Source: Escherichia phage Andreotti. From it: a stretch of DNA of 64,000 bases. This document shows positions 44,505-53,406 of the stretch, one piece after another. The notes under the pieces are model-generated. The model ran no database searches. It had not been told where the DNA came from and saw only the letters and a program-made list of their open reading frames with translations. The translations under genes and the position numbers were made by a program. Positions within the stretch are counted from its first letter, which is position 1. Every line of letters starts with the position of its first letter. Location of the stretch: the sequence record MN850610.1; one strand, given 5' to 3'.

Positions 44505-46121
44505 TCAACGTCTAAGCCCCTCATATGGGTTTCCTCTCACTAAGTCTGTGTGAGCACCCATTGATGGTGGCTTGAATAATTTAACTTCGTTAAGACTGTT
44601 GAAAGCATCACTGGTAGCATCCACTTGGTCATCTTTAGTTTTACCATCACCACAAAAACCTTCAAGTTCTTGAAAGTAAGCTTCATTCCAACTACCTCTC
44701 AAGACTTTTACAAGTCCAGCTTCAGAAGCAGCAGAAAATCCCGCAAATCGGGTAACTTTATCTTTATTTGTTGGTTTGGCTCTTGCACGATAGCCTTTCT
44801 CGGCAAGTTTCCTGATGAGGGATGTTGCGTAGGATTTACCAGCAGCGCCTGGGTCTTGAGGGATAAAAATACCAGTTCGCTTACCGTCACTTTCAGCAGT
44901 CAAATTAATTTGTGTTTCGACTCCAGAGGGTCTATCTCTAAATCTTACTACATCAATGATATAATAGCAACCGTCTTTTTTAGATTTACCCATCTTAACA
45001 CCTGCTGTCCAGTCTGGATTAGGGTTAACCTCAGATGGTAAAGTTGCTGCTAAGTCCCATGCTCTAACATCAAATACATCTTCTGGGAGTGAATCAACAA
45101 TTTCACACCATTGTCTTTGCCAATAGTTTGAACCTTCTGCACGAGCCTTCCAGTTACCGAAACGAAGTCTTGCAACGTTTACAGGAGTGTTGTTTTCAAG
45201 CTTACCGCGATACTTTGGTTCTAAGAAGTCAAGAATTGGGTTATCATCAATCGTACCAGAGATGAAGGTGTATGTTTGAGGAATCTCAAGAGGGAACATT
45301 TCAAGAATCTTGTCTCTCTCCCAATCAGAAACCATCACACCATCGTTCATTACATACCAACGAATACGACCACACTTTTCAGGGTCTGGATAACCTTCTT
45401 CATCTAAGAATGGTTCTACCCAATCATAAATAAAATGGTCTCTGTCTGGGTTCATGGAAATCTTCATGTATGAATCGCCTTCAGCACCAGAACGTAGACG
45501 GGTTTGTAGGTATGAAATCTGTGAAGCAGAGAAGTGTGTACCTTCGTCAAAGTAAATAGCTGAGTATTCAATACCCTGATGACCTTCAGCGTGCTTTTCA
45601 AGTTCTAGGTAGGTAAACTTGATAGTTGCCCCAGAAGGGAATGTAATAGTCATCTTCTGCTCGTGAGGAACCCCACCAAACTTACCAAATAGTTTCTTTG
45701 CAGCAGGCCATAAACCACCTTGTAACTGTGTTGTATTTCGACGGAAATATACAGCATTATAGTTAGGGTCTTCAATAAACCTTAAAGAGTCCATTAACAA
45801 TGCGGCAGTTTTACCAGCACCAGCAGCACCACCATAGAGAACCAAGTCAGCATTAGTATTTAAAAAGACCTCTTGAGAACCCGGTTGAGGGGCTACATAG
45901 TTCTTATCAGTCATCAATTTAAAGATGAGGCGAACTTGGTCTGGTGTGTATCTTAATAAAGTCAGAATTTGAGTTGGAAGGAATTTAGAGGGGTCTTTAC
46001 CGAATGATTTAATAATTTCTTTTACTTCATCAGAAAGCCCCAACTCTCCAGCTAGGACTTTCCTAACATCTTCCACTCGCTTCTGCTTAACAGCATTTAA
46101 GTCCATTAAGCACCTCCGCAA
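44505..46121 (-). CDS. terminase large subunit
   Basis: Walker A LYGGAAGAGKTAAL near N-terminus, C-terminal nuclease-like acidic residues; 538 aa; first large gene of virion operon. Confidence 0.85.
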   Translation of the reverse strand: MRRCLMDLNAVKQKRVEDVRKVLAGELGLSDEVKEIIKSFGKDPSKFLPTQILTLLRYTPDQVRLIFKLMTDKNYVAPQPGSQEVFLNTNADLVLYGGAAGAGKTAALLMDSLRFIEDPNYNAVYFRRNTTQLQGGLWPAAKKLFGKFGGVPHEQKMTITFPSGATIKFTYLELEKHAEGHQGIEYSAIYFDEGTHFSASQISYLQTRLRSGAEGDSYMKISMNPDRDHFIYDWVEPFLDEEGYPDPEKCGRIRWYVMNDGVMVSDWERDKILEMFPLEIPQTYTFISGTIDDNPILDFLEPKYRGKLENNTPVNVARLRFGNWKARAEGSNYWQRQWCEIVDSLPEDVFDVRAWDLAATLPSEVNPNPDWTAGVKMGKSKKDGCYYIIDVVRFRDRPSGVETQINLTAESDGKRTGIFIPQDPGAAGKSYATSLIRKLAEKGYRARAKPTNKDKVTRFAGFSAASEAGLVKVLRGSWNEAYFQELEGFCGDGKTKDDQVDATSDAFNSLNEVKLFKPPSMGAHTDLVRGNPYEGLRR

Positions 46122-46127
46122 ATAGAA

Positions 46128-46328
46128 TTATTCAGAGTCTGTAGCAGTCTCTTCTTTCTTAACTTCGAACTTTGCATCAACAGCATCAAGAAGTGCATCC
46201 ATAGATGCTTCTTTAATATCAATACCTGTTGCTACAGACAATCTGTCTGCAATTGCCATGATAGTATTCTGCATAAATTCTAGCTTTTTGTTAGCTTCAT
46301 AAAGTTCTTTATAAACGGTCTCACTCAT
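46128..46328 (-). CDS. hypothetical small protein upstream of terminase (66 aa)
   Basis: ORF track; too small to call small terminase confidently. Confidence 0.4.
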   Translation of the reverse strand: MSETVYKELYEANKKLEFMQNTIMAIADRLSVATGIDIKEASMDALLDAVDAKFEVKKEETATDSE

Positions 46329-46540: not shown

Positions 46541-46616
46541 TAAAATAACTTGGAGAATCCGAAGGGACTCGAACCCTTATAAACCTGTTTTGCAGACAGG
46601 CACATATCCATTTCTG
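46541..46616 (-). tRNA. tRNA-Cys (anticodon GCA)
   Basis: manual cloverleaf: 7-bp acceptor GAATCCG/CGGATTC, T-arm AAGGG-TTCGAGT-CCCTT, anticodon loop CUGCAAA, CCA encoded. Confidence 0.75.
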
Positions 46617-46620
46617 TCAC

Positions 46621-46713
46621 GGATTCAAATTGGAGGAAGATACCAGACTTGAACTGGTACACCGATTTCTCAGCTACTGGCAGTTTAGCAAACTGCTCCC
46701 TTACCTTTTAGGG
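46621..46713 (-). tRNA. tRNA-Ser (anticodon GCU), class II with long variable arm
   Basis: 93 nt; acceptor GGAAGAT/ATCTTCC, anticodon stem GCAGT/ACTGC, loop UUGCUAA, T-loop TTCAAGT. Confidence 0.7.
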
Positions 46714-46724
46714 TTAATCTTCCA

Positions 46725-47459
46725 TTATTTCTGTAATGCGCTCTTCATTTCTGGTGTTGCAATAGTGTCAATCACACCAGTTTTACAAGCATCGTCAAAC
46801 CAGTCTGGTAAGATACCTGCTAAGAACCCATTGATATTCGTTTTAAGGTACTCTGCAATAAGGGCAGCTTCTTCTTCAATCATCTGCACAACTTCATCTG
46901 CATAAGCTGTAATCTTTGAAATACCTTCATTAATCTTACTGACAGCTTGGTTAGCTAAATCAGAAACAGTATCAAGACCCTTATCAATAGCATCTTGTAA
47001 GTCACTTAACACACCATTAACACTATCTAGTGTACTGTTCATCATGTCAATAGCTTTTTGACCATACTCTGTAGCAACACCCATGATACCACTGAATGGT
47101 GTACAACCAACTTGTTCTCCTGCTGCACCCATAACATTGGAATACCCCTTTGCTACCTGCATACGTGATGAAAACTCATCAATAGATTTTTGACCGTAGT
47201 CTGTCAGAGTTTTAGTAGTTGCTGTAGTGCTTGTAAGGCTTGTTGTAAAGCTGTTTAGAAGGACTGTTGTAAGTCCAGCAGCAACAAGTTTCTCCTTCAT
47301 TGTAGGGTCTGTTACAGAACTAATAGAGCTTACAAGTGATGTAGAAGCAGCTACGGTTCCACCGAGAACTGCTGCACCAGTAATAAGCGGGTTAGAGAAC
47401 CCTTTACCAGTTTTTAAGAGATTAAAAATCTCCTTACCTTGTTCTGTCATCTCTTTCAT
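46725..47459 (-). CDS. hypothetical protein (244 aa) embedded in tRNA array
   Basis: track ORF 46725-47522 trimmed to ATG 47459 (MKEMTEQ...) so it does not overlap tRNA-Phe; Ser/Thr/Ala-rich. Confidence 0.55.
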   Translation of the reverse strand: MKEMTEQGKEIFNLLKTGKGFSNPLITGAAVLGGTVAASTSLVSSISSVTDPTMKEKLVAAGLTTVLLNSFTTSLTSTTATTKTLTDYGQKSIDEFSSRMQVAKGYSNVMGAAGEQVGCTPFSGIMGVATEYGQKAIDMMNSTLDSVNGVLSDLQDAIDKGLDTVSDLANQAVSKINEGISKITAYADEVVQMIEEEAALIAEYLKTNINGFLAGILPDWFDDACKTGVIDTIATPEMKSALQK

Positions 47460-47475
47460 TAAGCACCTTTGAAAT

Positions 47476-47552
47476 TGGTAGTCCAGTGGGATTTGAACCC
47501 TCTTCTCATGTTTTTCAGACACGCGCTTTAACCATATAAGCTACTTGGACTA
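47476..47552 (-). tRNA. tRNA-Phe (anticodon GAA), tentative
   Basis: anticodon arm CGTGT-CUGAAAA-ACATG; T-loop TTCAAAT with one stem mismatch; ends approximate. Confidence 0.55.
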
Positions 47553-47557
47553 TAAAT

Positions 47558-47633
47558 TGGGGTGACCTACGGGATTTGAACCCGTATAGACCATGTTCAC
47601 AGCATGGGTCATTACCGTTTATGATAAGGCCAC
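47558..47633 (-). tRNA. tRNA-His (anticodon GUG)
   Basis: acceptor with one G-U, T-arm ACGGG-TTCAAAT-CCCGT, anticodon stem CCATG/CATGG, CCA encoded. Confidence 0.7.
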
Positions 47634-47664
47634 ATTTAAGGACTCTCGCAAGAATCCTTAGAAG

Positions 47665-47740
47665 TGGCAGCGGCATAAGGATTTGAACCTTAATAGGACA
47701 GCTTCAGAGGCTGCTGCATTGCCAGTTATGCTATACCGCT
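47665..47740 (-). tRNA. tRNA-Gln (anticodon CUG)
   Basis: T-arm TAAGG-TTCAAAT-CCTTA; anticodon loop CUCUGAA; CCA encoded. Confidence 0.65.
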
Positions 47741-47745
47741 AAATT

Positions 47746-47824
47746 TGGTACTCCATATCGGATTCGAACCGATACATAACACAGATTTTAAGTCTGGCCT
47801 CTCTGCCAATTGGAGTAATGGAGC
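47746..47824 (-). tRNA. tRNA with Leu anticodon UAA, short variable region (atypical)
   Basis: T-arm ATCGG-TTCGAAT-CCGAT, anticodon loop CUUAAAA, D-loop AAUUGGCAG, A73, CCA encoded, 79 nt. Confidence 0.55.
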
Positions 47825-47826
47825 AT

Positions 47827-47902
47827 TGGCGGGGGATGTTGGAATTGAACCAACTTCTTCGATTTCAAAGACCGAGGTTTTAACCTTGTAAACTAATCCC
47901 CT
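47827..47902 (-). tRNA. tRNA-Gln (anticodon UUG)
   Basis: T-arm GTTGG-TTCAATT-CCAAC, anticodon loop CUUUGAA; 1-72 mismatch. Confidence 0.6.
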
Positions 47903-47910
47903 TTAAATCT

Positions 47911-48468
47911 TTACTTTCTCAGTGGATGAATAAAGAATGCCAACATAACTCTTTCCCTTGAGAATGCTCTTTCTTCTGGGACAACACTTTTTAGTTTCCA
48001 TCCAACATAAATTCTCCAGTAAAACTGTTTACCAAAGATTTTAATTGACGGAATAAAAGCGAATAATCCCCAAGCATTGTTGTTCCACATTAGGAGATAA
48101 CCTGTCTGATTATCTTCAGGGTCAGAACTTACGTTGATATTACCTTTCCACTTAGTAACATCTTTTACATCTCTTCCTAATACATGGTAAGAGAAGTTAT
48201 AAGCTTTGTTTCTCCAGAGCCATCCAACTCTCTGCATATAAACACCGAGCTTGCCAATCTTTCTAATCTTAGCCCATCTCTCAACGTGGCCTTTATCACC
48301 ATCAATCGGGTTGTCATAGGTCTCCATCCATCTGAATCCAAAAGGTAGATGCCCTTTCTTCTCACTGTAGAATGGAACTACGAAAGGTGCTAAGATGACT
48401 GCTAGGGTTGCTGCAAATGGTTCTAGTAAAGCTAGGAAAATCCATGAAGCATACTTCAAATATCTCAT
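47911..48468 (-). CDS. hypothetical membrane protein (185 aa) within tRNA array
   Basis: N-terminal hydrophobic segment WIFLALLEPFAATLAVILAPFVVPF; AAGAGG RBS. Confidence 0.55.
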   Translation of the reverse strand: MRYLKYASWIFLALLEPFAATLAVILAPFVVPFYSEKKGHLPFGFRWMETYDNPIDGDKGHVERWAKIRKIGKLGVYMQRVGWLWRNKAYNFSYHVLGRDVKDVTKWKGNINVSSDPEDNQTGYLLMWNNNAWGLFAFIPSIKIFGKQFYWRIYVGWKLKSVVPEERAFSRERVMLAFFIHPLRK

Positions 48469-48486
48469 CTAAATAGCCTCTTAAAA

Positions 48487-48564
48487 TTGGTGTTCCAAGA
48501 CGGATTCGAACCGTCACTAATACAAGGTTTGAGCTTGCATCCTCTGCCAATTGGGATACTGGAA
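48487..48564 (-). tRNA. tRNA with Leu anticodon CAA, short variable region (atypical)
   Basis: T-arm GACGG-TTCGAAT-CCGTC, anticodon arm GCAAG-CUCAAAC-CUUGU, D-loop AAUUGGCAG, A73. Confidence 0.55.
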
Positions 48565-48565
48565 C

Positions 48566-48640
48566 ATGGTACTCACTAAAGGACTTGAACCTTTTTCTTC
48601 ATCTTGTAAGGGTGATGTTTTACCATATAAACTAAGCGAG
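48566..48640 (-). tRNA. tRNA-Val (anticodon UAC)
   Basis: T-arm AAAGG-TTCAAGT-CCTTT; anticodon stem 5 bp incl. G-U, loop CUUACAA. Confidence 0.7.
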
Positions 48641-48736
48641 TGTGAAAGAGGTCTGAAGTTGTGCCGCTAACTCAACTCCGTGGAATTTGTTACGGTCTTC
48701 AGTTGACACCAGCGGTCTTTCACTTGACCTCTGAAT

Positions 48737-48813
48737 TGGTGCTGCTCACAGGACTCGAACCTGCATTTCCATCCTTACAAGGGATGTGTAATAGCCAATT
48801 ATACGAAAGCAGC
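48737..48813 (-). tRNA. tRNA-Thr (anticodon UGU)
   Basis: T-loop TTCGAGT; anticodon stem 5 bp, loop CUUGUAA. Confidence 0.7.
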
Positions 48814-48819
48814 ATTGTT

Positions 48820-48894
48820 TGGAGCATCCAGAGGGAATCGAACCCTCAACCTCAGTTTGGAAGACTGTAATTTTCCCGTTTAAACTATGGATGC
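48820..48894 (-). tRNA. tRNA-Gly (anticodon UCC)
   Basis: perfect acceptor, T-arm GAGGG-TTCGATT-CCCTC, anticodon loop CUUCCAA. Confidence 0.7.
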
Positions 48895-48900
48895 ACTAAT

Positions 48901-48976
48901 TGGTGGAGTCACTGAGAATTGAACTCAGTTCCCAAGTTTGCAAAACTCGAATTTTAACCATATAAACTATGACCCC
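48901..48976 (-). tRNA. tRNA-Ala (anticodon UGC)
   Basis: G3-U70 pair in acceptor (Ala identity element); T-arm CTGAG-TTCAATT-CTCAG; anticodon loop UUUGCAA. Confidence 0.7.
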
Positions 48977-48982
48977 ATTGTT

Positions 48983-49058
48983 TGGTACAGGTGGAGGGAA
49001 TTGAACCCATCGTCTTACTGATTAAGAGTCAGCCGCATAACCATTTTGCTACACCTGC
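48983..49058 (-). tRNA. tRNA-Lys (anticodon CUU), tentative
   Basis: T-loop TTCAATT with one stem mismatch; anticodon loop CUCUUAA. Confidence 0.55.
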
Positions 49059-49065
49059 ATTAATT

Positions 49066-49143
49066 TGGTAGGAGACAAGGGATTCGAACCCTCAAACATC
49101 TCGTTCTAAGCGAGATAGGTTTACCAATTACCGTCAATCTCCC
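49066..49143 (-). tRNA. tRNA with Leu anticodon UAG, short variable region (atypical)
   Basis: anticodon arm TCTCG-CUUAGAA-CGAGA perfect; T-loop TTCGAAT; D-loop AAUUGGUAA; A73. Confidence 0.55.
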
Positions 49144-49400
49144 ATTAAATCTTTTTAGAGAACTCCTAAGAACCTAAGCAACAAGGTTCCACAACAAGCT
49201 GTAATAACCTTAGAAGCCCTCTAAAAAGACCTAAAAAGGTCTTTGCATAGTCTTGTTTAATCCGGTGACTAGAACCTTTGGAGAGCTTGATATTATCTCT
49301 TCTCCGTGACACCTACTAGGTGTTTTATCAGTGTGTACGACAATACACGAGGGATACCAAAGCAACATCCGAATGAAGCTTGGCTTTAAATCTTATTAGG

Positions 49401-49488
49401 CGGTAAGTAAAGGAGTCGAACCCTCACCGTATCTCTACAGTGGCAACTGTTTTCAAGACAGTTTGGCTACCATTAGCCGCTACCTACC
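49401..49488 (-). tRNA. tRNA-Ser (anticodon UGA), class II
   Basis: 88 nt; 6-bp anticodon stem AACTGT/ACAGTT, loop CUUGAAA; 19-nt variable arm; T-loop TTCGACT; CCA not encoded. Confidence 0.65.
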
Positions 49489-49501
49489 CCTAATAAGATT
49501 T

Positions 49502-49584
49502 TGGCATGGGACGGAGGAGTTGAACCCCTTTGAAACGGTGTTGGAAGCCGTTGCTCATGCCTTAGAGTCTTAACATCGTCCCAT
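49502..49584 (-). tRNA. tRNA-Trp (anticodon CCA) with enlarged D region
   Basis: perfect acceptor ATGGGAC/GTCCCAT, anticodon arm ACGGC-UUCCAAC-ACCGU; about 7 extra nt between acceptor and anticodon stem. Confidence 0.5.
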
Positions 49585-49724
49585 ACTATAATTCGAAGCT
49601 TACCGTATTATCTCAACACTGTAAAGCCCCTTCTCAGATTATTTACATGTTCTGGAAAACATGAGATACAGACCACCTCCCTACAGGAAGACCCGCTAAG
49701 GTCGTCTAAGTAATCTGCTAACTA

Positions 49725-49801
49725 ATTGGCACACCCTACAGGATTCGAACCTGTAACTAACGATTTAGAAGACCGTTGCTCTATCCAATTGAACTAAGGG
49801 T
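49725..49801 (-). tRNA. tRNA-Arg (anticodon UCU)
   Basis: T-arm ACAGG-TTCGAAT-CCTGT; anticodon loop CUUCUAA. Confidence 0.65.
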
Positions 49802-50049
49802 GCATTAATCTTTAAAGACTCTCTTAGAAAGCCCTTAAAGATGCCCACCTTATTAATCATACCGTGGGCGAGTACGCCAAATTCTTTGATGAGGGATTGG
49901 AAGACCTCACTGGTGTTTAGCCTATCAAGCTACTGCCAGAAAAACATTGTCGTTTGCATTTATTTTAAATTTGCAAAATAGACGCTACGCAACGAAAACT
50001 AAGGGTACTATAAAGTAGTCACATCTCAATGTCAACAACTTTATTGAAT

Positions 50050-50124
50050 TTGGTTGTAGGTGAGGGTATCGAACCCTCTTCTAACGGTTATCAGCCGTTT
50101 GCATTACCATTTATGCTAACCCAC
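50050..50124 (-). tRNA. tRNA-Ile (anticodon GAU)
   Basis: T-arm GAGGG-TTCGATA-CCCTC; perfect 5-bp anticodon stem, loop CUGAUAA. Confidence 0.75.
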
Positions 50125-50126
50125 AA

Positions 50127-50203
50127 TTGGAGGTTCAGATGGGATTCGAACCCACATTCATAGGGCTTATGAGACCCTTGCATTACCTTATCTGCGACTG
50201 AAC
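50127..50203 (-). tRNA. tRNA-Met (anticodon CAU), elongator-type
   Basis: perfect acceptor GGTTCAG/CTGAACC; T-loop TTCGAAT; anticodon loop CUCAUAA. Confidence 0.65.
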
Positions 50204-50207
50204 CATT

Positions 50208-50283
50208 TTGGTAGAAGTGGAGGGATTCGAACCCATCGCCTGTCAGATTAAAAGTCTGCCGCATCACCATTCTGCTACACTTC
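50208..50283 (-). tRNA. tRNA-Lys (anticodon UUU)
   Basis: T-loop TTCGAAT; anticodon loop CUUUUAA. Confidence 0.6.
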
Positions 50284-50293
50284 CATTAAATTA

Positions 50294-50440
50294 TCTTTGT
50301 AGATAAGCTACCCAGACTTGCTTAAGGTCTGTAGCGATGTGCCTTTATGGGTTTAAAATCTAGAATTTACCCTTTCACCCTTTGTGGTCGCATACTCACA
50401 GGTAAGCTTAATAACTTATCTACAAAGATAATTACCAGAC
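50294..50440 (-). repeat. structured non-coding element bounded by a perfect 17-bp inverted repeat
   Basis: TTATCTTTGTAGATAAG (50294-50310) and its exact reverse complement (50424-50440) enclose 113 nt containing nested inverted repeat GCTACCCAGAC / GTCTGTAGC. Confidence 0.6.
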
Positions 50441-50713
50441 CGTTATTTATCATCTTAAGTGCTACCATTACACCAACTCGACATCTGCCGAGTGAAGGAA
50501 TCGAACCTTCGCCTTTTCTTTACCGAGAAATAGATTGTTTAAGTTTTGCTGTAAACGGTCTTCTGTAAATTTGTTGAGCCAGACCAAGTTTTAAATTTTT
50601 CAAAATTGAATTGGCTTGAAATTTTAAGTAACTTGCTGAATTTGGTCTTCTGCTCCTTTAAAGGATACTCGTAAGAACCCTTTAAGGGAGGGGCTAAATA
50701 GCCCTCTCAAAAT

Positions 50714-50789
50714 TGGCGAGGTATGCGAGAATCGAACTCGCGGCTCAGGAGAGACAGTCCCGTATTTTGCCCATCTAAACTAATACCCC
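50714..50789 (-). tRNA. tRNA-Asp (anticodon GUC), tentative
   Basis: acceptor GGGGTAT/ATACCTC, T-arm GCGAG-TTCGATT-CTCGC; anticodon loop CUGUCUC has U at position 37. Confidence 0.55.
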
Positions 50790-50795
50790 AAAAAT

Positions 50796-51224
50796 CTATG
50801 TACCATTTCTTAGGTACTTCTCTTTACGCCTTGCTGGATTGTAGTGCTTGCGTCCTTCTGCGTTTTTAGCAAGTCTGCAAGGTTCACACCTACAACCTCT
50901 TCTATAACCAGACACTGTGCCATGTTTAATTGGTGTGTATTTCCTATCACCAATCTGGGCTGGCCTAGTTGCTTTTGAATTACATTGTATGTGGCTGTAA
51001 GATATATTGTCAAGTGAGAAGAAAAGCTCTTTTGCATTCTCTTCATGTCTCCAAGGAACTTTATGTTCTATAGAGAAATCAACTCTGGACATTTCTTTTC
51101 CACAATGGTGACACTTATTCTGTCCAGTTTTACAAACCAAATCAAAGAGTAAATCTTTAACAAGCCTGTTCTGGGCTGTTCCTAAGCTCATACCAAGTTG
51201 TGACTTGTAAACTTCATTCTTCAT
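50796..51224 (-). CDS. HNH endonuclease (putative homing endonuclease) inside tRNA array
   Basis: CHHCGKEMSRVDFSIEHKVPWRHEEN...H (HNH-type His/Asn spacing); C-terminal GYRRGCRCEPCR. Confidence 0.7.
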   Translation of the reverse strand: MKNEVYKSQLGMSLGTAQNRLVKDLLFDLVCKTGQNKCHHCGKEMSRVDFSIEHKVPWRHEENAKELFFSLDNISYSHIQCNSKATRPAQIGDRKYTPIKHGTVSGYRRGCRCEPCRLAKNAEGRKHYNPARRKEKYLRNGT

Positions 51225-51246
51225 AGTATCAACATCTTATTAAAAT

Positions 51247-51331
51247 TGGTGCGCCCATCTGGACTCGAACCAGAAACCTTGAAAGGGACAGTTTTACAGA
51301 CTGCTGCATTGACCATCTCTGCCATGAACGC
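51247..51331 (-). tRNA. tRNA-Tyr (anticodon GUA), class II
   Basis: 85 nt; T-arm TCTGG-TTCGAGT-CCAGA; anticodon loop CUGUAAA; hairpin variable arm; CCA encoded. Confidence 0.65.
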
Positions 51332-51341
51332 ATTTAAATTT

Positions 51342-51418
51342 TGGCGGTTAGTCAGGGATTCGAACCCTGTGCCATTCGCTTAACAGGCGACCGCACATAC
51401 CTTATGTGCTTCCTAACC
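51342..51418 (-). tRNA. tRNA-Asn (anticodon GUU)
   Basis: T-arm CAGGG-TTCGAAT-CCCTG; anticodon loop CUGUUAA. Confidence 0.65.
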
Positions 51419-51495
51419 TTAATACATTGCCAGACCGTGTTTTTTCTTTTATCCGCAAAAAGTATTTTGTTGCTGTAAACGGTCTTCTGTAAATT

Positions 51496-51571
51496 TGGAG
51501 GCGGGTGCAGGAGTCGAACCTGCCGATACCATGCTAATGAGACATGTGAGACGCCCTTTCTCTATACCCGC
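51496..51571 (-). tRNA. second CAU-anticodon tRNA (Met, or Ile2 via lysidine), irregular acceptor
   Basis: T-arm GCAGG-TTCGACT-CCTGC; anticodon loop CUCAUUA; acceptor pairs only with a 1-nt register shift. Confidence 0.45.
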
Positions 51572-51663
51572 AATTCTTAATGACCAGACCAAATCTCTTC
51601 TTTGTCCGATTTACCTTCAGATGAATAAGATTAAGTTTGCTGTAATTGGTCTTCTGTCAAAAC

Positions 51664-51741
51664 TGGCGTTCCAGAAGGGATTTGAACCCTCAGATATCCA
51701 CTTTGAAAGAGTGGTGACTATACCATTTTGTCTACTGGAAC
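51664..51741 (-). tRNA. tRNA-Glu (anticodon UUC)
   Basis: perfect acceptor; T-loop TTCAAAT; perfect 5-bp anticodon stem, loop CUUUCAA. Confidence 0.7.
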
Positions 51742-51748
51742 ATTAATT

Positions 51749-51825
51749 TGGTCTCTGTTGGAGGATTTGAACCTCCGGCCTTACCGCCCCAAACGGAACG
51801 CTCTACCAAGCTGAGCTAAACAGAG
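51749..51825 (-). tRNA. tRNA-Pro (anticodon UGG)
   Basis: perfect acceptor CTCTGTT/AACAGAG, T-arm GGAGG-TTCAAAT-CCTCC, anticodon loop UUUGGGG (G37). Confidence 0.7.
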
Positions 51826-51990
51826 ATAAACTTTTCAAACTCTATGTAACCACTTTAACATTATTTTTTAGTGGTTGTCAAGAACTTTTTTAAAATATTT
51901 TTCAGTATCTTAGAAAAGCTCTCGTTTCGTCTCTATGTAGAACATATTAAAGGGTATCAAACACATTGTCAATACCCTTTTTAAAACTTT

Positions 51991-53406
51991 TTACCAGATA
52001 TAACGGTCAATCATTACTGCTTTGAGCATTACACTGATTGGGTCAAACTTCTCACCACCAAGCAGAGCTTTTAAAGTGGCTGGAGAGAACCCTGATACCA
52101 TTGCTACACCGTTATCCTTAACAGATACTTCGCAAGTACCATTACGGTTTGCTAAGTACCAGAATACCAGTTGTGGCATCTCATATCCAGCTTTTTTGTA
52201 CTTACTCTGAATTGCTTCAAAGTTTGTACGTCCGTTAGCTCCATCAACCTGATTGAACTCCATATCGGAGAAGATGATAAGCTTACTTGGCATATCTTTC
52301 TGAGTCAAGTTGTTTCTTTTACCTGTTTCAAGAATGCGGTCAAAAGCTGCTTGTAAGTTAGTTGAGCCATATTCAACGTGTCGCATCACCTGACGATGAC
52401 GGTTTCGTAAATCACCACTCAGTTCGATGAAGTGAGGGTTTGTTGAATAAACCATCAACTCATTCTTAAAGCAACCTGTATTGCGTTCTGCTACATACAA
52501 GGCAAGTGATACACCAATATCAAGAGCAGTAATGGAGCCAAAATTCACCCAAGACATTGAGCTTGAAACATCAGACATACATAGAATGTTTTCACCCTCT
52601 GCCATCCAGTTTGGTAGTGCTTTCCACTGCTCATTAGCAACATCTGCATTACCATACTTAACAGATTTAATCACATCGTATGGGTAAACAGCACCAGCGT
52701 TAATCTTAGTCTCACCTTTTGATAAGGACTCGATGTAAGCTTTGTAACGTTCCCCATCTTTACGGTTAAAGAGTTTTTGGTAACGTGCAGCAGCAAGTGA
52801 AGGAATCTTACTGTAGTCAATCTTACCAAACTCATTAGCAGAGATTTTTTGCTCAACTGTATCAGAGAGTGCAGACAACAGTGTGCGGTACTCTTTCTCA
52901 CTCAAGTTGGCAAATTTGCAGAAACGTTTTACAAACTGCTTGTGACGTGGTTTGACTCGTGGTAACCACTTAGCTGCCAAACCTGCTGTTGCAGGGTCTA
53001 GTAATGCTGCTTCTAAATGTTTGAAGGCATCTGTCTCGAAACGAGTACCTACGAAGATTTTGAAGTCATCAAAACGACCAAGTTCTGCAATCTTATCCAT
53101 AATGCGAAGAACCTGTGCAGGCTCTAAAACTTTGTCTTCAATCGCTTGAAGCAAAACAGTTCTGAAGGCTTTACGCTCACCCATACCTTCTCGTACATCT
53201 CGCATATGCAGTAAAATACGAACTGAAACATCAACATCCTCACGCAAAGCTTTGTAGAACAGGTCTGGTAAGATTTCTACATTGCTACGACTTGAACCAG
53301 CAGCTTTGTAAAAGTCTACAAGAGCAGACATTGATGAAGTATGGTTTACAGCACCATTTTCAGTTCGACCTGCATGAAGGTGCGCATGTTTAAATAACTC
53401 GCTCAT
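51991..53406 (-). CDS. von Willebrand factor A (vWA) domain protein with N-terminal helical domain (471 aa)
   Basis: MIDAS-type DxSxS motif in LCMSDVSSSM followed by alternating hydrophobic strands; about 250-aa helical N-terminal region; directly upstream of tRNA array. Confidence 0.6.
   Translation of the reverse strand: MSELFKHAHLHAGRTENGAVNHTSSMSALVDFYKAAGSSRSNVEILPDLFYKALREDVDVSVRILLHMRDVREGMGERKAFRTVLLQAIEDKVLEPAQVLRIMDKIAELGRFDDFKIFVGTRFETDAFKHLEAALLDPATAGLAAKWLPRVKPRHKQFVKRFCKFANLSEKEYRTLLSALSDTVEQKISANEFGKIDYSKIPSLAAARYQKLFNRKDGERYKAYIESLSKGETKINAGAVYPYDVIKSVKYGNADVANEQWKALPNWMAEGENILCMSDVSSSMSWVNFGSITALDIGVSLALYVAERNTGCFKNELMVYSTNPHFIELSGDLRNRHRQVMRHVEYGSTNLQAAFDRILETGKRNNLTQKDMPSKLIIFSDMEFNQVDGANGRTNFEAIQSKYKKAGYEMPQLVFWYLANRNGTCEVSVKDNGVAMVSGFSPATLKALLGGEKFDPISVMLKAVMIDRYIW

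Follow-up and report, generated by a model that had tools for sequence, protein, structure and literature searches.

Transfer-messenger RNA (tmRNA, SsrA) is at the center of the main ribosome-rescue and protein-tagging pathway of the bacterial host; in E. coli it is about 360 nucleotides (nt) long and its tag reads ANDENYALAA. Another group of small structured RNAs, the Y RNAs, forms particles with the protein Ro60 (Rsr) and is known from Salmonella, Mycobacterium and some phages, including Thermus phage phiLo with its Yrl1/2 RNAs. In Y RNAs of the YrlA type, a T arm, a closed acceptor hairpin and a D arm follow one another, a layout that dimeric tRNAs can mimic (PMC4201824). FelixO1-type phages are not among the phage Ro60 cases named (PMC12135203). 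We analyzed a 64,000-nt stretch of Escherichia phage Andreotti (MN850610.1), here called the window, in which a preliminary description of positions 46,541 to 51,825 had rightly recognized a tRNA array with interspersed open reading frames (ORFs) and structured non-tRNA elements. One of the spacers encodes what we call the tag RNA, a widespread and unannotated module of about 190 nt that resembles the message part of tmRNA, has no tRNA-like domain and possibly represents a new class of RNA. Other spacers hold RNAs resembling Y RNAs, and the array is headed by a gene for a predicted Ro60-like protein. With moderate confidence, we consider a tRNA island combined with Ro60-linked Y-RNA-like RNAs and a tmRNA-message-like tag RNA to be the best joint explanation of the region. 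All features described below lie on the minus strand unless stated otherwise.

The tag RNA (49808-50000) lies in the 248-nt gap between tRNA-Ile and tRNA-Arg and was identified by its folding energy (z = -4.15 against dinucleotide shuffles, the measure used for all spacers), by matches in other phages and by covariation. From 5′ to 3′ it consists of the conserved 5′ end AGUUUUCG (49993-50000), an A/U-rich leader, the tag frame, a hairpin, two pseudoknots and a tail hairpin (49808-49842). Its promoter (TTGACA-17-TATAGT, 50007-50035) matches the consensus at 11 of 12 positions and is kept in the Felixounavirus copies; other lineages possess their own promoter just upstream of GUUUUCG. The hairpin (49910-49939) is composed of CUGG...CCAG and an inner helix, helices 1 and 2 of our structural alignment, and surrounds the end of the tag frame together with the stop codon. 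Pseudoknot A (49877-49909) pairs UGAGG with CCUCA and the loop CCAA with UUGG, with compensatory changes at three of five and two of four pairs, respectively. Pseudoknot B (49843-49876) consists of CGUACU/GGUAUG and GCCCAC/GUGGGC with the near-invariant linker AUUAAUAA. Its first helix is paired in 100% of alignment cells and shows compensatory changes at two pairs; the second helix was read from alignments, and its counted columns are only 74% paired because indels misalign it. Over the whole structure, 93.7% of cells in a 72-sequence alignment are paired compared with 30-44% in slid controls, and 109 compensatory cells, concentrated in both pseudoknots, were counted compared with 31 ± 4 in shuffles. 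An additional pseudoknot upstream of the tag frame could not be established in the alignments, which show small lineage-specific hairpins able to include the resume codon. In the window, the resume codon can be sequestered in the small hairpin UUUGCA...UGCAAA (49955-49980), and in other lineages UUUGC within GACUUUGCGG can pair with GCAAA. This resume-codon hairpin may represent a structural switch for access to the frame.

The tag frame (49922-49957; relaxed ARAGORN searches and alignments) reads GCA AAC GAC AAU GUU UUU CUG GCA GUA GCU UGA UAG and would specify the peptide ANDNVFLAVA followed by two stop codons. Ten peptide variants are found on 112 copies, a set made up of IMG/VR contigs, copies in relatives and the window itself. 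All variants have 10 residues and follow the pattern AN[DE]xx[FY]LAVA, with residue 6 always being Phe or Tyr. In a minimum-spanning network of the 19 distinct nucleotide variants, the GCA frame changes by 18 synonymous and 18 non-synonymous single steps, the overlapping AUG frame by 2 and 31 and the third frame by 8 and 26, respectively. The stop codon is preserved while varying between UAA, UAG and UGA. No conserved start codon is present in the tag frame among the copies: CUG and GUG candidates are lineage-specific, AUA at position -2 is the sole recurrent near-start codon with ACA replacing it in two variants, and an in-frame stop is located 7-11 codons upstream of GCA in ca. 85% of copies. 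Judged from the sequences, the frame behaves as translated sequence that ordinary initiation cannot reach, a combination that is the hallmark of a tmRNA message. Because the frame evolves as coding sequence yet has no start codon, it is most likely a template decoded without ordinary initiation.

Sensitive BLAST searches with the gap sequence returned 595 matching phage records, over half of them outside Felixounavirus. The latter match in the central ~95-125 nt alone, at 72-87% identity, and the element is almost always unannotated there; in none of the matching records is it annotated as tmRNA. Among the carriers are Kuttervirus, Klebsiella and Aeromonas phages of ~47 kb as well as Salmonella and Klebsiella phages of ~72 kb and ~110 kb, and an exact-pattern scan of IMG/VR detected the module on 105 viral contigs of several genome-size classes. 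Among complete E. coli genomes, 137 of 5426 contain chromosomal, unannotated copies. The two that we inspected belong to lambdoid prophages. They lie beyond pR' and a short terminator, with the gene for antiterminator Q on one side and the holin gene on the other. Phage lambda contains no tag module, only one copy of the flanking scaffold hairpin. A tag-independent viral scan for diverged modules gave chance matches alone among the 82 new loci checked, and species-representative bacterial genomes yielded a single match. On sequence grounds, the module can be assigned to Felixounavirus, Ackermannviridae, further large phage contigs of ~80-110 kb, Klebsiella and Aeromonas phages of ~47 kb and E. 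coli lambdoid prophages. Our literature searches found no paper containing the tag peptide strings and no tmRNA-like element described in lambdoid or FelixO1 phages, and one genome announcement that includes FelixO1-type phages reports finding no tmRNAs.

Flanking elements delimit the mobile unit. Long GGUAAGRGCAUUG...CAGUGCUCUUUCC hairpins in ~47 kb contigs were considered as part of the tag RNA and rejected, as they represent a lambdoid late-leader scaffold that is present in lambda without the module. Since the flanking hairpins are leader scaffold, the mobile unit spans AGUUUUCG through the second pseudoknot, ~170-190 nt in all. A linkage between the tag module and the Ro60-like gene was likewise rejected; the two are neighbors in Felixounavirus alone. 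In four sequences of ~47-55 kb, probably lambdoid (L007, L016, L031 and L039), inserts are interchangeable in the leader hairpin GGUAAGRGCAUUG[insert]CAGUGCUCUUUCC. One and the same insert, with a T-arm-like hairpin (GAGGGUUCGAAUCCCUA), is found upstream of the module in L016 and downstream in L007, and the leader hairpin therefore behaves as a cassette holder. In an E. coli prophage (L112, 4825-4900), a short hairpin terminator comes immediately after the late promoter TTGACA-17-CATAAT, an arrangement resembling the short constitutive pR' RNA described for Shiga toxin (Stx) phages. The tag module lies beyond this terminator and so would be transcribed only after Q antitermination. A plus-strand ORF of 46 amino acids (49841-49981), antisense to the tag RNA and annotated as 'hypothetical protein' in Salmonella phage SeKF_63, is probably spurious because conservation tracks the pairing of the minus-strand RNA and the tag frame.

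The resume and tag region is aligned weakly by Rfam tmRNA models, with E-values of about 1e-3 overall; in the window, the scores are 30.8 bits with RF04321 and 15.9 bits with RF00023, at E ~2e-3. For the window and its relatives, scores range from 10.5 to 15.9 bits with RF00023 and from 17 to 31 with RF04321 (gathering score 47 for both), and from 15 to 18 with RF01850 (gathering score 84). Several observations weigh against a decoded, tmRNA-like message. Every Rfam tmRNA score is below the gathering score, and translation of the frame is deduced from substitution patterns alone. Between its own promoter and tRNA-Arg, the tag RNA of the window contains no acceptor/T-arm domain, and the module has no acceptor stem that could carry a G3:U70 pair and a CCA end. 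With default settings, ARAGORN recognizes no genuine tmRNA in the 112 copies; its one call is flagged as pseudo and borrows neighboring tRNAs. The possibility that the GUUUUCG 5′ end serves as an acceptor strand with a partner in trans was rejected, with 104 matches found compared to ~124 expected by chance. The tag RNA is not a tmRNA because it lacks a tRNA-like domain.

Candidate tmRNA models that would supply such a domain were examined and rejected. The 'permuted tmRNA' models of relaxed ARAGORN searches borrow parts of neighboring tRNAs or, in one copy (L110), a strand inside the predicted promoter. In a nested model in Kuttervirus, the 5′ acceptor strand GCUGUUU is part of a local 12-bp hairpin that covaries between variants. 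Other lineages do carry a complete tRNA-like structure in tandem after the module, sometimes with an encoded ACCA, and the message is not enclosed by it. In these tandem structures, the acceptor pair is (U)GUGGUG/CACCAC(A), the T arms vary in sequence and a D-like hairpin is present; pair 3-70 is G3-C70, C3-G70 or U3-A70, never G3:U70. CCA-ending tRNA-like structures directly follow the tag module in Kuttervirus S115 and phage selz (L004 1635-1764 and L005 1650-1730), one of them ~130 nt long with a T arm and ...AAACGGCUCCA. Phage selz contains an extra tRNA-like structure of ~68 nt, in which a GAAA tetraloop caps the 'anticodon' arm (...GAAGGUUCGAGUCCUUCCUCCAAUCCCA).

In our reading, the tag RNA is a self-contained, promoter-driven RNA with the design of tmRNA's messenger half. 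It would accumulate, in the window probably via RNase P cleavage at tRNA-Arg, and its frame would be decoded along a pathway akin to trans-translation that either feeds into the host's own or competes with it. Rescued proteins would then receive an SsrA-like tag with the altered C-terminus ...LAVA. That the frame is genuinely decoded in a start-codon-independent manner is a tentative proposal. We are as tentative about the fuller reading, a new class of mobile phage RNA in which a tmRNA messenger module without tRNA-like domain is decoded start-independently on host ribosomes, hijacking or partnering with host SmpB/tmRNA or a phage tRNA-like RNA and giving a ...LAVA tag in place of the host degradation tag.

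The main rival is a decoy. An untranslated tag RNA mimicking the messenger and pseudoknot part of tmRNA could titrate factors such as SmpB (acting in frame selection), ribosomal protein S1 or RNase R and in this way damp or redirect trans-translation. Growth of lambdoid phages depends on host tmRNA, as known from lambda-immP22. A decoy would need neither a tRNA-like domain nor a start codon, both of which the tag RNA lacks, and its leader and first codons (AUAAAUGCAAACGA) are near-invariant as RNA and close to the Rfam permuted-tmRNA consensus. However, a pure RNA mimic should conserve nucleotides and not amino acids, whereas close copies differ mainly at third positions (18 of 36 steps synonymous compared with 2 of 33 in the overlapping frame), retain Phe or Tyr at residue 6 and keep a stop through all switches between the three stop codons. 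The decoy explains the missing tRNA-like domain and not the synonymous substitution pattern, and we regard it as unlikely. Probability beyond that given to start-independent decoding and to the decoy falls to a split particle, a mini-ORF or a relic.

Somewhat less likely still is a split tmRNA, a two-part particle to which the tag RNA would contribute the coding piece and a separate tRNA-like RNA, from phage or host, the part that can be aminoacylated. Natural two-piece tmRNAs exist, the Rfam permuted-tmRNA model gives the best score for the window module (30.8 bits) and several other lineages contain a tRNA-like structure, CCA-ending or CCA-less, just downstream of the module. Yet in natural two-piece tmRNAs each piece contributes one acceptor strand, and the tandem tRNA-like structures observed here are complete by themselves and without exception lack G3:U70. 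No strand complementary to the conserved 5′ end of the module is found above chance, and in the window the module is flanked by ordinary tRNAs alone.

We consider it improbable that the module is a conventional mini-gene, with either the GCA frame or the overlapping frame (MQT....WQ and a stop) serving as leader peptide or small ORF with normal initiation. The AUG does overlap the GCA codon, its 9-codon frame with a UAG stop is open in all copies and AUA is found two codons upstream of GCA in most copies. We nonetheless rejected initiation at an ordinary start codon of the tag frame, as well as the AUG mini-ORF that overlaps it, for want of a conserved start and in view of the almost exclusively non-synonymous changes of the AUG frame (2 vs 31). 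The replacement of AUA by ACA in two variants, the lineage specificity of the CUG and GUG candidates and the upstream in-frame stop in ca. 85% of copies argue against initiation in the tag frame, and the alignments show no conserved Shine-Dalgarno sequence.

The gene directly upstream of the array (51991-53406) encodes a protein of 471 amino acids for which Pfam gives just DUF2828 and DUF7788, not TROVE, and which belongs to PHROG 850 'RNA-binding protein'. No relationship to Ro60 was detected by sequence, either by phmmer or by profile searches against PDB sequences. An AlphaFold2 prediction from the single sequence was unusable, with a predicted local distance difference test score (pLDDT) of 42; a usable model required a 45-sequence alignment and reached a pLDDT of 89 and a predicted template modeling score (pTM) of 0.88. 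When this model was compared with the PDB using Foldseek, the top 11 matches were all Ro60, Rsr or phage Ro60 structures, aligned over their full length with probability 1.0 and E-values of 1e-8 to 1e-6. They include Xenopus and human Ro60, Deinococcus Rsr and the Ro60 of Thermus phage phiLo (among the structures matched are 2i91, 1yvr, 2nvo, 9l5y and 9nfa). The MIDAS (metal ion-dependent adhesion site) motif DxSxS (D279, S281 and S283) is unvarying in the 45 homologues. According to the predicted structure, the protein is a Ro60 homologue consisting of a HEAT-repeat ring together with a vWA (von Willebrand factor A) domain with MIDAS motif, an assignment based on the alignment-derived model and the fold search as sequence searches gave no signal. 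Two sigma70-like sites (51944-51972 and 51852-51881, each with 10 of 12 consensus matches) between this gene and the first tRNA (51852-51972) represent putative promoters. In an unrelated phage of ~153 kb, a DUF2828 gene is followed by a permuted tRNA-like element and a 13-tRNA array, and in Vibrio phage phi-pp2 a DUF2828 gene lies beside 14 tRNAs. A search for literature on DUF2828 found nothing relevant.

Located ca. 0.3-1.6 kb downstream of the Ro60-like gene and on the same strand are four RNA units, Y1 to Y4, built on a common scaffold. Four copies of the motif ACAGAAGACCNNTTACAGCAA are present in the 64 kb compared with 0.02 expected, always on the minus strand and within the array, and each copy is followed 25-97 nt later by the partner motif GGUCUGG. 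The two form helix I, an asymmetric internal loop (AGA opposite G) and helix II. Y1 (51581-51659) has the stem UGAC-AGA-AGACCAA ... UUGGUCU-G-GUCA and an insert of ~38 nt, and Y2 (51427-51492) has the same scaffold with an insert of ~25 nt; both are identified by motif, partner motif and covariation. Y3 (50576-50655; motif and covariation) has the scaffold GAGC-AGA-AGACCAA ... UUGGUCU-G-GCUC. Across paralogues and orthologues, helix I occurs as UUAC/GUAA, UUGC/GCAA, UGAC/GUCA and GAGC/GCUC and helix II as AGACCG/CGGUCU and AGACCAA/UUGGUCU. The joined stem halves are paired in 99.6% of cells compared with 21-44% when the partner strand is slid. Compensatory cells number 77 compared with 29 ± 4 in shuffles, and double changes are found at 5 of 11 pairs.

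Y4 (50432-50568), identified by sequence, covariation and a purpose-built scanner, is of the YrlA type and is the only one of the four units containing a permuted tRNA-like module. Its scaffold stem closes a V hairpin, a T arm (GAAGG-UUCGAUU-CCUUC, 50494-50510), a closed 7-bp 'acceptor' hairpin (ACUCGGC-AGAU-GUCGAGU, 50476-50493) and a D arm (GUGU-AAUGGUA-GCAC, 50459-50473), an order that agrees with the YrlA layout (PMC4201824). Between subtypes the acceptor hairpin is swapped for unrelated, complementary sequences (ACUCGGC/GUCGAGU, ACACG/CGUGU and ACCCUUC/GAAGGGU) while the T and D arms remain constant, and in one subtype it encodes G-CCA in its loop. The scanner, which looks for the succession of T arm, closed acceptor hairpin and D arm, gives one match in the window, namely Y4, and one in the unrelated ~153 kb phage, ca. 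330 nt downstream of its DUF2828 gene and just before the tRNA array. Downstream of Y4, a further domain (50290-50431) is closed by a 10-bp long-range stem, UGUAGAUAAG...CUUAUCUACA, that is replaced by UGCAGUGAC...GUUACUGCA in other subtypes, suggesting covariation. The gaps 50285-50713 and 49144-49726, tRNA-Ser apart, are kept just within Felixounavirus-like phages.

By analogy with known particles, we infer that the spacers hold a Ro60-associated family of Y-RNA-like RNAs, part of a phage Ro60-Y RNA system within the tRNA island, in which Y1-Y4 would probably attach to the phage's Ro60-like protein via their bulged stem. Their variable modules would engage host RNA-handling factors, as in Ro60-Y RNA particles, and the recruitment of host nucleases reported for phiLo Ro60 could be a parallel. 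Against this stand the lack of an Rfam match for any of Y1-Y4, the pooling of paralogues and orthologues in the covariation counts, whose cells are not independent events, and the state of the GNCGAAN0-1G motif, which appears as GGCGAAG at the start of the T arm of the window's Y4 and as GGAGAAG or GAGAGAAG in other subtypes. The least probable explanation of the region, an ordinary array in which the spacers are processing signals, decayed tRNA copies or insulating hairpins, the Ro60-like gene is an accidental neighbor and the SsrA-like frame is the relic of a decayed phage tmRNA, draws on the routine occurrence of HNH-containing tRNA arrays in Felixounavirus, on the unremarkable folding energies of some spacers and on the mimicry of the YrlA layout by dimeric tRNAs (PMC4201824), but is largely refuted by the conservation data, in that the acceptor hairpin of Y4 covaries and has a loop of 4 nt, too short to accommodate two tRNAs, the scaffold motif exceeds chance 200-fold and shows compensatory changes, the order of Ro60-like gene, tRNA mimic and tRNA array recurs in an unrelated phage and a relic would not keep 72-87% identity, covarying pseudoknots and an intact frame across unrelated phage groups.

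The tRNA array as such is a known and ordinary feature of FelixO1-like phages, and the window represents a Felixounavirus. A homologous block is present in 313 phage records at 80-99% identity, 204 of which cover at least 80% of the query; the carriers are Escherichia, Salmonella, Shigella, Citrobacter and Erwinia phages of Felixounavirus/Ounavirinae type, and annotated relatives show the same tRNA order and HNH insertion. Run with default settings on the whole window, ARAGORN finds 25 minus-strand tRNAs at 46551-51825, 24 of which reach the Rfam tRNA gathering score. Beginning at the Ro60-like gene, these are Pro(UGG) (51749-51825; Rfam 59 bits), Glu(UUC) (51664-51741), a tRNA with anticodon CAU (51496-51572) that is the one below the gathering score, Asn(GUU) (51342-51418), Tyr(GUA) (51247-51331), Asp(GUC) (50714-50789), Lys(UUU) (50209-50284), another tRNA with anticodon CAU and three G-C pairs in its anticodon stem (50128-50204), Ile(GAU) (50051-50125) and Arg(UCU) (49727-49803). 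The latter begins 5 nt past the tail hairpin of the tag RNA and is missing from some Felixounaviruses that retain the tag RNA. Further downstream follow Ser(UGA) (49399-49488), with a low Rfam score of 33 bits, Leu(UAG) (49066-49143), Lys(CUU) (48983-49058), Ala(UGC) (48901-48976), Gly(UCC) (48820-48894), Thr(UGU) (48737-48813), Val(UAC) (48567-48641), Leu(CAA) (48488-48565), Gln(UUG) (47827-47902), Leu(UAA) (47746-47824), Gln(CUG) (47665-47740), His(GUG) (47558-47633), Phe(GAA) (47476-47551), Ser(GCU) (46631-46723) and Cys(GCA) (46551-46626). For all 25, the anticodons read by hand in the preliminary description are those assigned by ARAGORN. The irregularities it had pointed out are real as well, namely a weak T stem in tRNA-Phe, U37 in tRNA-Asp and, at the acceptor end of the CAU tRNA at 51496-51572, a U1.C72 mismatch. 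In three Felixounavirus subtypes (L101, L109 and L060), tRNA-Arg is followed, ca. 240-390 nt downstream of the tag, by an extra ~115-nt tRNA-like element interrupted by a long internal insertion (GGUCAAG...GUAGGUUCGACUCCUACCUUGACUGCCA); no such element is present in the window.

The count of 26 tRNAs in the preliminary description holds for these 25, the 26th (Trp) being a real cloverleaf-like element that no tool calls. This non-canonical gene of 83 nt (49502-49584) was recognized by sequence reading and folding. It has the anticodon CCA (49542-49544), a 7-bp acceptor stem with A1-U72, G73, an encoded 3′ CCA and a T arm; the D region is enlarged and the sixth pair of the anticodon stem is a C.A mismatch, or alternatively the loop has 9 nt. 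ARAGORN makes no call at default settings and at thresholds of 70-80% gives just different, poor folds, and the Rfam tRNA model returns nothing at E <= 5. A promoter-like site (TTGAGA-17-AATTAT, 49588-49616, 9 of 12 consensus matches) precedes the gene and is kept before canonical and aberrant Trp genes alike in the Felixounavirus contigs compared, two of which (L042 and L067) have an ARAGORN-called canonical tRNA-Trp(CCA) at the same locus behind the same promoter. In E. coli, tRNA-Trp identity is defined by the CCA anticodon, G73 and A1-U72. The element at 49502-49584 shows this set together with the encoded CCA and positional orthology, and we regard it as a diverged tRNA gene of the Trp type whose functionality is uncertain. 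With the Trp-like gene accepted beside the 25 canonical tRNAs, the island covers all 20 amino acids.

The anticodon set had been suggested to reflect either the codon usage of late genes or counter-defense against the depletion of host tRNAs. Relative to the E. coli codon table, the codons most enriched in the long ORFs of the phage are AGA (8x), AGG, ACA, AAG, UCA, CUA and GUA, and each of them is read by a phage tRNA, in line with the suggested link to codon usage. The association between enrichment and tRNA presence across all codons is not significant (Mann-Whitney p = 0.11), which speaks against it. With this partial support, the tRNAs would supply the A/U-rich codon usage of the phage, AGA above all. 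Overall, the region would constitute a FelixO1-type 'translation/RNA island' that follows the Ro60-like gene and is read, like it, on the minus strand.

The strong secondary structure ascribed to several spacers is borne out for three of them, 49804-50001 with the tag RNA (z = -4.15), 49144-49398 (z = -3.12) and 48642-48736 (z = -2.96), the others being unremarkable by energy although some hold covarying stems. The 255-nt spacer between tRNA-Leu(UAG) and tRNA-Ser(UGA) (49144-49398) is Felixounavirus-specific and ends in a long near-perfect hairpin; relatives annotate short ORFs there on both strands. The 95-nt spacer between tRNA-Val and tRNA-Thr (48642-48736) forms a long hairpin and contains GAAGACCGU, which is similar to the Y scaffold's 5′ motif. 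In the spacer at 49617-49726 (z = -1.1), a weak candidate for a possible fifth Y-like RNA, sequence and fold point to a stem akin to that of the scaffold, AGACGACC/GGUGGUCU.

The three protein genes said to interrupt the array all belong to real families in Pfam and PHROGs. They encode a DUF7217 protein (46725-47459; Pfam E = 2e-87, PHROG 2114), a DUF7338 membrane protein (47911-48468; Pfam E = 3e-61, PHROG 2143) and an HNH (homing) endonuclease (50796-51224; PHROG 23251, E = 6e-68), annotated as HNH endonuclease in relatives. In two relatives (L001 5897-6418 and L002 5905-6426), the HNH gene is annotated 31 codons longer than the ATG-initiated ORF of 142 amino acids in the window and therefore overlaps tRNA-Tyr; the ORF of the window has no such overlap. 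Directly downstream of the array are a small conserved protein gene (46128-46328, PHROG 4397) and the gene for the large terminase subunit (44505-46121), so that the RNA island is flanked by the Ro60-like gene on one side and the packaging genes on the other.

Phage therapy, biocontrol and research on Shiga toxin-producing E. coli make heavy use of FelixO1-type, Kuttervirus and lambdoid phages, whose genomes are routinely reported with tRNAs and without tmRNA. If the tag RNA is decoded, these phages rewrite the output of the main ribosome-rescue and protein-tagging pathway of their host. If DUF2828 proteins are Ro60 homologues with their own Y-RNA-like partners, the Ro60-Y RNA system would extend to many enterobacterial and Vibrio phages and be physically linked to phage tRNA arrays. 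Several 'hypothetical protein' ORFs annotated in the spacers are probably spurious and should be replaced by non-coding RNA features.

Compared with known systems, the array corresponds to the tRNA cluster of FelixO1-like phages (Felixounavirus, Ounavirinae) in its position beside the terminase genes, its tRNA order, the HNH insertion and 88-98% nucleotide identity, and the tRNAs themselves show no difference. In public annotations of these phages, the spacers are blank or filled with short 'hypothetical protein' ORFs on either strand, one of them antisense to the tag RNA. The tRNA region of phage T4 contains the stable non-tRNA species 1 and 2 RNAs, which are likewise small, structured and co-transcribed among phage tRNA genes and represent a conceptual precedent alone. 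Stx phages carry tRNA genes in the slot between Q and the lysis genes of the late-operon leader. This is the slot in which the tag module is found in the two E. coli prophages, and tRNA-Arg(UCU) and a CAU tRNA come after the module in several ~47 kb phages. In contrast to the leader tRNA genes and the pR' RNA of lambdoid and Stx phages, the module is not a tRNA, and lambda has the flanking hairpin without it.

The Ro60-Y RNA particles are matched by a Ro60-fold gene, as predicted, beside several small RNAs, by the stem-bulge-stem closing each RNA and, in one RNA, by the YrlA order of T arm, closed acceptor hairpin and D arm together with a CGAA-containing motif. The system of the window differs in that its protein has diverged beyond the reach of Pfam, sequence and profile searches for Ro60, that four paralogues without Rfam match are interleaved with tRNA genes and that the AGACC/GGUCU scaffold with its AGA/G loop is specific to the group of the window. 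With one- and two-piece tmRNAs, the tag RNA shares an A-rich leader, a GCA resume codon in a context near the Rfam consensus, a short start-less tag frame whose product would have a hydrophobic/Ala-rich C-terminus and resemble the E. coli SsrA tag, a stop codon placed in a hairpin and consecutive H-type pseudoknots after the frame. In contrast to tmRNA, the tag RNA has no enclosing tRNA-like domain, no end that can be aminoacylated and no G3:U70 pair, just two pseudoknots follow its frame, the tag ends in LAVA instead of LAA, and the module is mobile between phage families and resides within an mRNA leader in the lambdoid prophages inspected.

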